Positions 58,211 to 61,401 of a DNA stretch of 64,000 nucleotides are shown one piece after another; the first letter of the stretch is position 1; every line of letters begins with the position of its first letter. The position numbers and the translations under genes were made by a program. The DNA is from Escherichia phage PinkRuby, in the sequence record PP925839.1; one strand, 5' to 3'. Below the pieces are notes generated by a model. That model made no database searches. It was given only the letters and a program-made list of their open reading frames with translations, and had not been told where the DNA came from.

Positions 58211-58360
58211 TTACTGCATGACTGTGATAACTGTCATGATAACACGTTGAATTCCGAACGCAAGAAGACCTCCTGCTACAGCTGGAACAACGCCTAAACC
58301 CGCCAGTAAAATGCTACCGGATACTAATGCAGCGCTTGTAATACCAATGAATGGACTCAT
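58211..58360 (-). CDS. Small hydrophobic protein (motA.1 position)
   Basis: 49-aa ORF MSPFIGITSAALVSGSILLAGLGVVPAVAGGLLAFGIQRVIMTVITVMQ, ATGA overlap with gene 52 stop; hand-translated. Confidence 0.45.
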   Translation of the reverse strand: MSPFIGITSAALVSGSILLAGLGVVPAVAGGLLAFGIQRVIMTVITVMQ

Positions 58361-59685
58361 TTGATTTCCTCTAAATCTTTAGTGTATTCAGTAACTACAT
58401 CAGTAGTTTTCCAATATTCGTTTTCTTCTTTTTTAGCTTTAGCTTCTTCAGCAAGTTTCTTTGCTTCGTCGGAAGTCATATGAAAAATATTCATTCCGAC
58501 TAGTTTATCAACATAAGAAGAATACATCTCAATTTTAGAAAGTTCTTCGGTCAGTTCTTTACGAGTTTTACCCTGCACAACGATTTCACCTGAAATTACT
58601 TTCTTAATGAAATGTGCCTTGGCAAAGGCTAAACGAAAAGCTGACTCAGTTTCTTTAATTTTGTTATCAATTCGTTTTTGGACATAAGTTTTACGAACTT
58701 CAACGAAATCTTTAATTAAATCAACTACGTTATCGTAAACTTGTAGTTTTCCTTTCTCATTAATAACCGTAATATTTTGGGAACGACGCTCAATCAACCC
58801 GAAGTCTTTCATAATTTTTGCATGGCGTTCTTCTTCATTATCGCTCAAAGAATATTCTTTACGGAATTTAACTTTAAAGCCAAAGCCATGCTCACCACAA
58901 GCATCATCCCACGTAATGAAGCCTTTATCTTCAAGTGGGTCTAAGATTTTACTCACATAAGTTTCACGATCATACTTATACGGAATCTCAGTGATATGCA
59001 TTTGAGTTCGTGAAGTAAACTTGTATGTTCCACGAATTTCATATTGCCCATCAATCTCAACGACTTCACCACGAAATTCTGGGAATTCTACCTTCGGTTT
59101 AGTTACTTTCTTTCCTTGAAGAGCTTGCAGTACAGCTTTCTTGACAGAAGAAACGCTATGAGGAAGAATGTAAGTTGCATAACCAGTTGCAATACCGGAA
59201 ACGCCATTAAGAAGAACAGTAGGAATAATAGGCAAATAGAAAGCAGGCGGAATGTGTTCTTTATCTTGATGTACCGGAGCATATTCAGTATCTTTATATA
59301 CGTTATAGAAATTTTTACTTACACGAGCAAAAATATAACGACTTGCTGCTGCTTTTTGGACGGTACGAGAACCAAAGTTTCCTTGACCATCTAACAGAGG
59401 AAAGTTATTATTCCAAGTATTAGCCATCAAAGCACCTGCGTCTTGTGCAGAGTTTTCACCATGATGATATCCAAGGTCTGCTACACCACCTGCAATAGAA
59501 GCGAGTTTGTGAAACTTATCTTTATTTCCTCGTGCCAAATCAAGAGCTCGAGAAATAACAAATCGTTGAACTGGCTTAAATCCATCAATCATATTTGGGA
59601 TAGCACGATTTTCAACCGTGTACATAGCATAAGCCAATGCTTCATTATCAATGATACTTTTTAAATCGCGATTATTCAGTTGCAT
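58357..59685 (-). CDS. 52: DNA topoisomerase II medium subunit gp52
   Basis: 442 aa; MQLNNRDLKSIIDNEALAYAMYTVENRAIPNMIDGFKPVQRF...; active-site region of GyrA-like N-terminal fragment. Confidence 0.9.
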   Translation of the reverse strand: MQLNNRDLKSIIDNEALAYAMYTVENRAIPNMIDGFKPVQRFVISRALDLARGNKDKFHKLASIAGGVADLGYHHGENSAQDAGALMANTWNNNFPLLDGQGNFGSRTVQKAAASRYIFARVSKNFYNVYKDTEYAPVHQDKEHIPPAFYLPIIPTVLLNGVSGIATGYATYILPHSVSSVKKAVLQALQGKKVTKPKVEFPEFRGEVVEIDGQYEIRGTYKFTSRTQMHITEIPYKYDRETYVSKILDPLEDKGFITWDDACGEHGFGFKVKFRKEYSLSDNEEERHAKIMKDFGLIERRSQNITVINEKGKLQVYDNVVDLIKDFVEVRKTYVQKRIDNKIKETESAFRLAFAKAHFIKKVISGEIVVQGKTRKELTEELSKIEMYSSYVDKLVGMNIFHMTSDEAKKLAEEAKAKKEENEYWKTTDVVTEYTKDLEEIK

Positions 59686-59821
59686 AAATTTACCATACTA
59701 GTGAATGTAGTGCCATAATAACATCAGAAATGAAAAGCACGACTTGAATTAATCCGAACATTACTCCATAATATAGTGCTACCAATAAAGTAGCAAGGGC
59801 TAATGAATAGCCCAAGATTTT

Positions 59822-59981
59822 CTTAATCATTAGTAGATAACAACACAAATGTTAAATATGCACACATACCCTGGGCTAAAGCTTGTGAAAACACACTGCT
59901 AGCATCGATACAGATAGTTAAAACACATGCTACTATCCAACAAATAAATGAAATAACTCCTAATAATTTTGCGATATTCAT
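59822..59981 (-). pseudogene. Small membrane-peptide gene at the ac position, disrupted by an apparent +1 frameshift
   Basis: ATG 59981 with GAGGAAAAT SD opens a frame that stops after 27 codons (stop 59898-59900); an overlapping +1 frame continues as a hydrophobic segment to stop at 59822-59824; removing one base near 59940-59945 gives a single 51-codon ORF. Confidence 0.4.
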
Positions 59982-59988
59982 ATTTTCC

Positions 59989-60069
59989 TCACTGGCGTCC
60001 GAAGACGCCTTTGTTTTTAAGATTGTTACGATAGAACTGCATCACATGTTCGTTATGGAAATTACTCAT
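59989..60069 (-). CDS. stp: Stp peptide (host-defence modulating 26-residue polypeptide)
   Basis: 26-aa [29 protein letters not shown], hand-translated; matches T4 Stp as I recall it. Confidence 0.75.
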
Positions 60070-60235
60070 ACACACCACACATTTTGCATAAACGTTCAAA
60101 ACAGATAAATCCGCCACCTACACACATCACGACAGCCACATTATCATTAAGAGGTAGACCTAAAGCCGTAAAGATTCCAGTCAATGTGAATAAGGCTAAA
60201 ACTAATAGGTAACCCATTACAAATAGAGCTTTCAT
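60062..60235 (-). CDS. Small two-TM membrane protein
   Basis: 57-aa [60 protein letters not shown]; TAATG coupling with ndd; hand-translated. Confidence 0.45.
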
Positions 60236-60693
60236 TAGTATGCCTGCAAAACAAATTTAAAGTTATCAGCCAACATACGGTTCATTTCTTCAAGCGTTTG
60301 ATACTCAGAATGATGATTACGAGTAAACGCTAAAGCTAACTGACCTTTTCCAAATCCTGTCGTCAAAGGTTTCATCTTAGAAGCAGGAAGATAAAATACT
60401 GCATATGGAACATTGTTATTTGCAATAGTACGCGCAAGCTGAGACCGACGTTGACGAATATGACTTAGAACTGCGCTGAATCCTTGCTTAGAACGTTGAT
60501 TACCTACATAAAATCGTGCAGACACACATGGATTACTAAATGGACGACCATCTAATTTACTTACTAAAAAGTAAAATCCAGGTTTAGATAAAATATCTTT
60601 ATGTGGAACTCCCAAAAACCATTCACCACCCTTGATTGTACCAATAACAGTAGCACCTGCATCATTCAGATCAGTAACAGTCATATATTTCAT
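60235..60693 (-). CDS. ndd: Ndd nucleoid disruption protein
   Basis: 152 aa, [42 protein letters not shown]... matches T4 Ndd. Confidence 0.85.
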
Positions 60694-60751
60694 ATTAATT
60701 TCCTCTAAATTATTTTCTACTCCAAGGCCGCATGAATACGCGGCCGATAAA

Positions 60752-60967
60752 TTAATCGTCGCAGTCGACGCTCAATTCCCAAAACTCTTCTACAGTATAA
60801 GTTTCAGTATCATTTTCAATACAGAAACGTTCATTACTGTTATTTGCTAAAGTAGCGTTAACTGTCGGTTTCTCGCTAGTGCTCTTAAGAGGTGAAATAC
60901 GAATTAACTGATCACCGTTATCTAAACAAAAAATTTCACCAACTTTTACATCTTTAAAACTTTTCAT
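60752..60967 (-). CDS. Hypothetical protein (ndd.x cluster)
   Basis: 71-aa ORF, ATG. Confidence 0.5.
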
Positions 60968-61082
60968 AATTCACCTCAAGGAGTATAAAATCCAAATGCA
61001 GTTGTTGACCATCCCATCCAATATGGGAAATTTGCACCAATGTAAAACATAAGAATATAAAACCAACCGCTCAACAAATTCA

Positions 61083-61280
61083 TCATTTTACACCATTCCA
61101 AATTGTTTCAACTACGGATTTTAAACCATTTTGATGAATGTCCATTCCGACTACCGCCATCAAATAGATTCCAACTACAACTGAACCTAAGGCAAAAATC
61201 AGCATGAAAATGAATAAAGCCGGAAAAATATTATCGAAAAACCATTCAATAAATGTAAAAGCACTGCGTTTACGCTTCAT
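61083..61280 (-). CDS. Small membrane protein (ndd.x cluster)
   Basis: 65 aa from ATG 61280 with GTGAGGAAAAT SD (track starts at upstream TTG); two predicted TM segments. Confidence 0.5.
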   Translation of the reverse strand: MKRKRSAFTFIEWFFDNIFPALFIFMLIFALGSVVVGIYLMAVVGMDIHQNGLKSVVETIWNGVK

Positions 61281-61287
61281 ATTTTCC

Positions 61288-61401
61288 TCACATAAATCCA
61301 AAGTAAGCGTTTAATACATCAATCATTAAAACGATTGGGAATATACTCAAAACTATTAGTATTATAACTACATTCCATATAGCTTTAATAATCTTTTTCA
61401 T
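61288..61401 (-). CDS. Small membrane protein
   Basis: 37-aa ORF MKKIIKAIWNVVIILIVLSIFPIVLMIDVLNAYFGFM with GGAGG SD; track 82-aa ORF extension runs through the promoter and is rejected. Confidence 0.5.
   Translation of the reverse strand: MKKIIKAIWNVVIILIVLSIFPIVLMIDVLNAYFGFM

Follow-up and report, generated by a model that had tools for sequence, protein, structure and literature searches.

A block of small hydrophobic genes between motA and denB

The 64,000-nt stretch of the Escherichia phage PinkRuby genome analyzed here (PP925839.1; the window) carries on its minus strand, in the interval between motA and denB, nine conserved hydrophobic open reading frames (ORFs) of 28-65 aa that are packed head to tail. 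An original prediction had flagged positions 58211-61401 as a dense cluster of very small hydrophobic peptides; we present evidence that these ORFs are very probably real protein-coding genes and propose that their products are early inner-membrane modulators of host envelope complexes, with the acridine-sensitivity protein Ac as the model case. The nine hydrophobic products are MotA.1, 52.1, Ac, a 57-aa protein, Ndd.2, full-length Ndd.2a, Ndd.4, Ndd.5 and Ndd.6, and beside them lie the hydrophilic Stp (grand average of hydropathy -1.14), Ndd and Ndd.1. Together with gene 52, these are arranged as follows:

58211-58360, minus strand: motA.1, 49 aa, a Gly/Ala-rich hydrophobic peptide starting on an ATG that overlaps the stop codon of gene 52 (ATGA)
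58357-59685, minus strand: gene 52, a 442-aa ORF for the medium subunit of DNA topoisomerase II, named gp52 in T4 and relatives
59690-59830, minus strand: 52.1, 46 aa, hydrophobic, its start overlapping the ac stop by 8 nt
59823-59981, minus strand: ac, 52 aa, acridine-sensitivity membrane protein of the PP01 type, carrying one additional Thr close to the C terminus
59989-60069, minus strand: stp, 26 aa, hydrophilic, putative type Ic restriction inhibitor and activator of the PrrC anticodon nuclease
60062-60235, minus strand: 57-aa gene, a two-helix hydrophobic protein of phrog_5941
60235-60693, minus strand: ndd, nucleoid disruption protein, 152 aa
60752-60967, minus strand: ndd.1, 71 aa, hydrophilic
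60976-61086, minus strand: ndd.2, 36 aa (35 aa if started at 61083), aromatic-rich and moderately hydrophobic
61083-61280, minus strand: full-length ndd.2a, 65 aa, DUF7248
61288-61401, minus strand: ndd.4, 37 aa, a single hydrophobic helix
61467-61565, minus strand: ndd.5, 32 aa, hydrophobic
61562-61648, minus strand: ndd.6, 28 aa, hydrophobic

The peak 17-aa mean Kyte-Doolittle value lies between 2.2 and 3.4 in eight of the nine members and at 1.4 in ndd.2 (cut-off 2.0); by hydropathy, the block thus contains stretches of membrane-spanning length, as in the class of small inner-membrane proteins. Adjacent genes mostly join through overlaps of 1, 4 or 8 nt, or else through 4-8-nt spacers, the longer spacers being those between ndd.1 and ndd (58 nt) and between ndd.5 and ndd.4 (65 nt, containing a putative promoter), and GAGG-type Shine-Dalgarno sites precede the genes that lack a start overlap. 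The minus-strand ORFs of 49, 57, 65 and 37 aa, the gene at the ac position and Stp were all found where the original prediction had placed them.

The best match of the segment is Escherichia phage SholemSchwarzbard (99% identity), with 486 other phage records at 95-99%, nearly all of them T4-like phages of Escherichia or Shigella; on these matches, the window is a Tequatrovirus and the flagged stretch its 52-denB segment. The equivalent segment of the T4 reference carries, on a single strand, motA, motA.1, 52, 52.1, ac, stp, ndd, ndd.1, ndd.2, ndd.2a, ndd.3, ndd.4, ndd.5, ndd.6 and denB, and the genes shared with T4 (NC_000866, 163.7-167.0 kb) have like order, strand and overlaps, at 96-100% aa identity each. 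The cluster is already known, in that its genes are annotated in T4 and the block has been described: T4 has been stated to contain three clusters of genes for predicted membrane proteins, ac belonging to one of them (bioRxiv 10.1101/2025.06.30.662393, which cites Miller et al. 2003). The small ORFs, which had been treated as largely unrecorded, are all named T4 genes (motA.1, 52.1, ac, stp and ndd.2-ndd.6) with the exception of the 57-aa gene. The window differs from T4 in the extra 57-aa gene in the ndd-stp interval, an extra 87-aa gene upstream of ndd.6, a 65-aa ndd.2a that is uninterrupted where T4 has a 1-nt deletion, and a 52-aa variant of Ac. What the present analysis contributes is a set of corrected gene boundaries, evidence that a single disrupted gene underlies T4 ndd.3/ndd.2a, a survey of where the 57-aa gene occurs and a positional pattern at gene 52. 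A scan of IMG/VR with Ndd returned five loci only, and comparisons were therefore built on GenBank phage records. Many such records name 52.1 or motA.1 "acridine resistance protein", "transcriptional regulator" or "flagellar motor protein", labels that seem to have been carried over from neighboring genes.

Gene boundaries and families

The general claim of a dense cluster of small hydrophobic peptides stands, in that its members are genuine conserved genes, but it requires two amendments: three hydrophobic members, ndd.2, ndd.5 and ndd.6, had gone unlisted, and a "23-aa micro-ORF" at 59690-59761 had been given the wrong boundaries. The latter is the C-terminal half of the 46-aa 52.1, whose frame extends back without interruption as far as an ATG at 59830. 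Full-length 52.1 matches Pfam DUF7396 over residues 1-46 of 46 (E 3.5e-23, 81.9 bits against a cut-off of 27) and also spans all 46 positions of phrog_3595, whereas the 23-aa reading spans just half of the DUF7396 profile. The N-terminal MIKK is kept in other genera, where the internal Met is replaced by Ile or Ala, and the pattern YG..G....LF...V.....S..W is invariant among genera; 812 phage records contain a match, 795 of them with at least 80% query coverage. Cross-genus pairwise dN/dS (the ratio of nonsynonymous to synonymous substitution rates) is 0.07-0.36 for this gene, and the close-range test gives p 0.1. The 52.1 coding sequence also contains a 7-pair hairpin (59777-59795, minus strand); ATK47 has a terminator annotated at the equivalent site, and in G4507 and D5505 a terminator is listed under the 52.1 match. 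In Enterobacter phage KMB19, the 320 nt that separate gene 52 from ndd (3181-3501) carry no annotation but encode clear homologues of both 52.1 and the 57-aa protein.

A further correction concerns T4 itself. Full-length Ndd.2a, which has a basic N terminus, a single long stretch of hydrophobic residues and a polar tail conserved at its C terminus, matches Pfam DUF7248 over residues 6-63 in an uninterrupted ORF (E 4.4e-20, 71.9 bits against a cut-off of 27), has a dN/dS of 0.11 and finds matches in 494 records. In T4 (extract 4933-5129), a 1-nt deletion just after the start, ATGAAGCGT -> ATGAA-CGT, splits this 65-aa gene. It is because of this deletion after ATGAA that T4 is annotated with an out-of-frame 26-aa ndd.3 and a 40-aa ndd.2a with an internal Met start; on this alignment, T4 ndd.3 and ndd.2a are one disrupted gene. 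The 65-aa gene is intact in the window and in 11 of 12 close relatives compared, the exception being SV76, with a nonsense codon at position 45.

The remaining members likewise fall into phage families. MotA.1 is 100% identical to its T4 counterpart and belongs to phrog_3487 (E 2e-31; dN/dS 0.16, p 3.5e-7), with tblastn matches in 492 phage records. Ndd.2 (phrog_4135) is 97% identical to T4 Ndd.2 (dN/dS 0.13, p 8e-7); Ndd.5 (phrog_5011) and Ndd.6 (phrog_8851) are each 100% identical to T4, with dN/dS of 0.14 (p 0.0012) and 0.20, respectively, and Ndd.6 homologues of 28-29 aa in Dhaka-, Mosig- and Gelderlandvirus share the invariant MSS..W...W...IP.IC..F. Ndd.4 covers residues 1-37 of 37 of phrog_3098 at 97% identity to T4; at close range it shows three changes only, all nonsynonymous, and against its 36-aa Dhakavirus homologue it retains 58% identity with a dN/dS of 0.17. 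The hydrophilic neighbors Ndd (dN/dS 0.11) and Ndd.1 are both 97% identical to T4.

The 57-aa gene is the sole cluster member missing from T4. One base is common to its ATG and the ndd stop codon (TAATG), the end of the gene overlaps the beginning of stp by 8 nt, and its product spans residues 1-57 of 57 of phrog_5941 (E 2e-27), to which it is joined by its length, two hydrophobic helices and the conserved G20, F22, G26, E47 and G54. The two-transmembrane call made earlier agrees with an AlphaFold2 model, which predicts a helical hairpin (residues 2-24 and 31-52; predicted local distance difference test score 71). Of the 219 phage records with a match, most are Klebsiella T4-likes (40-56% identity) and only 21 reach an identity of at least 90%; a full HMMER search across 1.84 billion representative proteins gave 14 hits, most of them 57 aa long, and a word-index protein search gave three clusters. 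The short HMMER hits are the same family, and three long hits (168-1070 aa) matched over short stretches only and were treated as hydrophobic noise. The family is confined to T4-like phages and usually lies right after ndd: the gene lies directly against ndd in the window and in dhaeg, Moon and KEN25, and in S16 another small ORF separates ndd from the homologue. In T4 and Ac3, the interval between the ATGA at the 57-aa start and the one at the stp start is precisely deleted, so that stp is coupled to ndd. As the gene adjoins ndd in Dhaka-, Moon- and Jiaodavirus, the simpler history would be that the T4 lineage lost it.

Coding potential and selection

That these ORFs encode proteins is, in our view, very probable, and the evidence for this comes from composition, distribution and substitution pattern. 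In 1000 dinucleotide-preserving shuffles over two intergenic-looking segments, the observed coverage by hydrophobic ORFs was never reached, either at 59686-60240 (0.84 against a shuffled mean of 0.07; 0/1000) or at 60694-61655 (0.51 against 0.03; 0/1000), and the observed ORF counts were reached by two and by no shuffles, respectively. The closest annotated relative has, in its equivalent 64 kb, 28 coding sequences (CDSs) of at most 76 aa, seven of which carry a transmembrane-grade stretch; all seven are in the block, and such a stretch is found in none of the 16 small CDSs outside it. The relative is colinear without offset at ~58-63 kb only, and its small CDSs were therefore mapped by sequence.

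Among 13 Tequatrovirus genomes, the pooled dN/dS is 0.15 (p 4e-27), with substitutions mostly at third codon positions. Taken one by one, motA.1, ac, stp, ndd.2, the 65-aa gene, ndd.5 and ndd.6 each show significant purifying selection. Across genera, dN/dS stays below 0.5 for 52.1, the 57-aa gene, ndd.4 and ndd.6; for the 57-aa gene, which shows no variation at close range, the pairwise value is 0.46. Homologues of 52.1, ndd.4 and the 57-aa gene in other genera have equal or near-equal length, and ORF length and motifs are kept between genera at 30-70% identity.

Transcription and expression

A ~75-nt element with TTTACA-17-TG-TACTAT occurs in three minus-strand copies. The copy upstream of motA served as the reference for the repeat comparison (families D1/D2), and we read all three, from their hexamers and spacing, as T4-type early promoters:

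58108-58182, minus strand: putative early-promoter element upstream of motA, with hexamers TTTACA-17-TACTAT and TG at 58154-58126; downstream bound of the cluster
61412-61486, minus strand: putative early-promoter element for ndd.4 and downstream genes, 94% (D2) and 68% (D1) identical to the motA copy, TTTACA-17-TACTAT with TG
61918-61992, minus strand: putative early-promoter element for an 87-aa ORF, ndd.6 and ndd.5, 85% (D1) and 69% (D2) identical to the motA copy, TTTACA-17-TACTAT with TG
58185-58206, minus strand: predicted intrinsic terminator after motA.1, a 9-pair stem (six G-C pairs) with a T run behind it, at which the long early transcription unit ends

Phages Ac3 and SV76 each have an annotated terminator at the equivalent motA.1-end site. 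An Rfam scan of the region at E up to 1 gave no match near a gathering score, with partial matches only for the terminator hairpin.

In time-resolved omics of T4 infection, all ten small genes are classed as "early" transcripts and as "NA" (undetected) proteins, whereas Ndd and Ndd.1 were detected as proteins, the latter early (PMC9697503 Table S2). Taken at face value, this is the lack of detectable translation that the original prediction held would speak against the ORFs, but it does not refute them: since the genetically active Stp and Ac also went undetected, non-detection reflects the limits of tryptic shotgun mass spectrometry for tiny hydrophobic peptides. No ribosome profiling study of T4 infection was found in the literature searched, and the main text of the CRISPRi-ART preprint yielded no per-gene fitness data on the cluster genes.

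Two members with assigned roles

Only two members of the cluster, Ac and Stp, have an experimentally assigned role, and Ac provides the only functional lead for a hydrophobic member. The Ac protein of the window belongs to phrog_2501 (E 3.7e-25), lies between stp and 52.1 as in T4 and is 96% identical to T4 Ac over its full length, with the D26-A27 helix junction and G38 retained; its dN/dS is 0.05 and it has matches in 462 records. It differs from T4 Ac by one added Thr three codons ahead of the stop, a PP01-type change that reportedly leaves acriflavine susceptibility unchanged, whereas substitution of G38 in T4 Ac gives resistance (bioRxiv 10.1101/2025.06.30.662393). Loss of Ac confers acridine resistance, E. 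coli expressing Ac is sensitized to acriflavine and ampicillin, and the protein has been proposed to sit in the membrane and block AcrAB-TolC, a hypothesis put forward in the same preprint (bioRxiv 10.1101/2025.06.30.662393). The ac position is itself variable: at least two divergent allele types, ~45% identical to one another, are found, with Shfl2 and UFV-AREG1 carrying the other type between 52.1 and 57-aa genes that are 100% identical to those of the window, and ESh24 has a different 57-aa hydrophobic ORF at this position.

The original prediction's identification of Stp as the trigger of the host anticodon nuclease is borne out by a match to PF08133 over residues 1-26 of 26 (E 9.5e-20, 70 bits against a cut-off of 25). 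The activity resides in the 18 N-terminal residues, which are near-absolutely conserved, whereas the C-terminal part is polymorphic and largely dispensable (PMC3014915). In the window these 18 residues are exactly those of T4; position 19 is Asn in the window and Thr in T4. Stp inhibits the type Ic enzyme EcoprrI, which unmasks the PrrC anticodon nuclease, and the cut tRNA-Lys is repaired by T4 polynucleotide kinase and RNA ligase 1 (PMC3014915), so that the Stp/PrrC/Pnk/Rnl1 circuit is as the prediction had stated it. The repair genes were likewise correctly placed within the window, as shown by their domain matches:

29124-30032: pseT, with polynucleotide kinase/phosphatase (PNKP) kinase and phosphatase domains
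31782-32942: rnlA, with T4 Rnl1 domains

A proposed role at the host envelope

In light of these results, we propose that two early promoters (~61.95 kb and ~61.45 kb, minus strand) would give rise to polycistronic transcripts ending at the terminator after motA.1 and carrying the nine hydrophobic-peptide genes together with gene 52, ndd, ndd.1 and stp, with each small gene translated either from its own Shine-Dalgarno site or through translational coupling at a stop/start overlap. The peptides would then enter the host inner membrane within the first minutes of infection, where each would bind and alter a host envelope component, acting as a nonessential, host-dependent accessory factor for which blockade of AcrAB-TolC by Ac may serve as the model. 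Stp would be the hydrophilic exception, acting in the cytoplasm on the EcoprrI/PrrC complex. To this combined reading, of real, selected and early-transcribed genes whose products are inner-membrane peptides modulating host envelope complexes, we assign a probability of roughly 60%; for the envelope-modulator role of the hydrophobic peptides taken by itself, the odds appear evenly balanced, and the host-takeover or exclusion functions originally suggested for them are a plausible and reasonable guess.

Several points weigh against the proposal. The link between Ac and the efflux pump is a preprint hypothesis, and for the other eight hydrophobic members no phenotype, informative family or solved structure was found. 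Membrane insertion and topology are predictions from hydropathy; direct evidence of translation among the hydrophobic members is confined to the genetics of Ac, T4 shotgun proteomics having seen none of them; and for 52.1, ndd.4 and the 57-aa gene the close-range dN/dS is uninformative. When all ten small proteins were compared with Pfam, PHROGs, NCBIfam and PADLOC, the only families returned were self-families of unknown function and Stp, with no match at E up to 0.1 to exclusion (Imm, Sp), holin, toxin or defense families and only sub-threshold matches far below the cut-offs (KwaA, E 0.012; bacteriocin 51, E 0.029; TadB/C_N, E 0.045), and Ac, the 65-aa protein and MotA.1 found nothing significant among Protein Data Bank sequences.

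The closest mechanistic analogy is with AcrZ, a bacterial protein of 49 aa that binds AcrB: the cluster peptides are of similar size, with one or two hydrophobic helices, and Ac is proposed to act on the same pump. This is an analogy of mechanism only, no sequence relation of the cluster peptides to a bacterial family or to a solved structure having been found. Small phage membrane proteins are nonetheless a poorly explored class, of which this block is among the densest examples in the best-studied phage, and to know their envelope targets (for Ac, efflux pumps have been proposed) could account for host-specific fitness as well as for synergy between drugs and phages.

Alternative functional readings

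Exclusion, counter-defense and tethering roles are rivals to envelope modulation, and are mutually compatible. The one that survives best, which we nonetheless consider unlikely, is that the peptides are counter-defense factors or, like Stp, are sensed by host abortive-infection systems, the region being an arms-race cassette. Stp, in the same block, is exactly such a factor, and the block is mosaic, with ~45%-identical ac alleles beside 100%-identical 52.1 and 57-aa genes, and with a 57-aa gene so patchy that only 21 near-identical Tequatrovirus records carry it. The stp DNA, moreover, is nearly identical between the window and Dhakavirus, with a synonymous substitution rate (dS) of 0.08, whereas the adjacent 52.1 has a dS of 0.55 and Ndd is ~62% identical at the protein level; this low dS relative to the neighbors suggests either recent exchange of stp between genera or a constraint on its RNA. 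Hyperplastic regions and promoter-terminator mediated shuffling have been described for this very segment, including an ndd.4/ndd.5 exchange, and the mosaic features would fit an adaptive accessory region as proposed there (PMC4122927). Against this reading, no match to known anti-defense or defense families was found in the searches above, and of six hydrophobic members searched, five (motA.1, 52.1, ac and the 65-aa gene, with ndd.x judged by inspection of 13 genomes) are near-universal and strongly conserved in Tequatrovirus, which is atypical of fast arms-race genes.

Quite unlikely, too, is the possibility that at least some members confer superinfection exclusion or immunity, blocking DNA entry or lysis from without by later-arriving phages in the manner of Imm and Sp. 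T4 Imm and Sp, which are early, small and envelope-located, provide precedents for exclusion, and the cluster shares with them its early transcription and small inner-membrane character. Imm and Sp are, however, larger than the cluster peptides (sp is a 294-nt gene) and encoded elsewhere, T4 exclusion is genetically accounted for by these two genes, and no exclusion family in Pfam, PHROGs, NCBIfam or PADLOC matched any cluster member.

A third alternative, improbable in our estimate, takes the peptides as partners of the DNA-acting proteins to which their genes are coupled, with MotA.1-type peptides tethering gp52, and the 57-aa protein tethering Ndd, at the inner membrane. If true, the micro-genes would be more than accessory genes assembled at random: they would be position-locked partners that anchor the topoisomerase and nucleoid-disruption machinery. 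In the older T4 literature, Ndd shifts host DNA toward the periphery of the cell, and membrane fractions were reported to contain T4 topoisomerase subunits. The 57-aa gene, as described, directly adjoins ndd in the window, dhaeg, Moon and KEN25, and across five or six T4-like genera the gene 52 stop codon (58357-58360 in the window) is the start of a strongly hydrophobic ORF of 23-49 aa:

Tequatrovirus: MotA.1, 49 aa
Dhakavirus: 34 aa, in three genomes
Jiaodavirus: 23 aa, in two genomes
Moonvirus: 46 aa
Gelderlandvirus: 45 aa
Mosigvirus: 26 aa, with a TTG start, doubtful

These ORFs cannot be aligned between genera, so that the position is kept despite turnover of the sequence, and they are left unannotated in JS10, KEN25, KP179 and ATK47. 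No such ORF lies at the junction in Karamvirus KMB19 or in Acinetobacter phage AB-Navy71, however, and in this survey, which covered the gene 52 junction, the pattern may represent a general habit of T4-type genomes, throughout which tight coupling is common, as well as a functional link to the topoisomerase. It further tells against tethering that T4 lacks the 57-aa gene while its reference annotation still gives nucleoid disruption by Ndd, and that a small ORF intervenes between ndd and the 57-aa homologue in S16.

Hardly credible, finally, is the reading of the small ORFs as chance frames in T-rich spacer or regulatory DNA from which no protein is made: a coding strand of 38% T favors hydrophobic codons, a naive scan yields 50 hydrophobic ORFs in the window, many nested in real genes, and T4 proteomics saw no product of the small ORFs, but the idea is already contradicted by the conservation data (the pooled dN/dS, the third-position bias and the cross-genus retention of length and motifs), as well as by the shuffles and the genetic phenotype of ac.

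Neighboring and minor features

Two further features lie at the edges of the genes discussed above:

59994-60009, minus strand: predicted hairpin at the 3' end of stp, GGCGUC-UUCG-GACGCC, covering the last six stp codons and directly upstream of the ac Shine-Dalgarno site
61645-61908, minus strand: hydrophilic 87-aa ORF, given as 264 nt in the annotation of relatives

The stp hairpin is a 6-pair helix with a UUCG loop in the predicted minimum free energy structure (61-nt fold, -13.6 kcal/mol, z -2.2), and the site is also flagged as terminator-like on the opposite strand; the element, the sequence of which is nearly invariant, could stabilize the mRNA or affect ac translation.

The 87-aa ORF, situated between denB and ndd.6, is missing from T4 and present in most relatives and in other genera (e.g. 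Moon293) at ~50% identity; it has no Pfam match. A longer, 119-aa reading of this ORF (61645-62004) was rejected, its first 32 codons being the translated early promoter (repeat 61918-61992). A 59-aa hydrophobic ORF at 59103-59282 was likewise set aside as an alternative-frame artifact within gene 52. ORF finders more generally read through the promoter copies and produce spurious peptides with "...YYTTISYGG..." or "...YYYPINYGG...", among them the 32 codons just mentioned and a 36-aa CDS annotated in SholemSchwarzbard.

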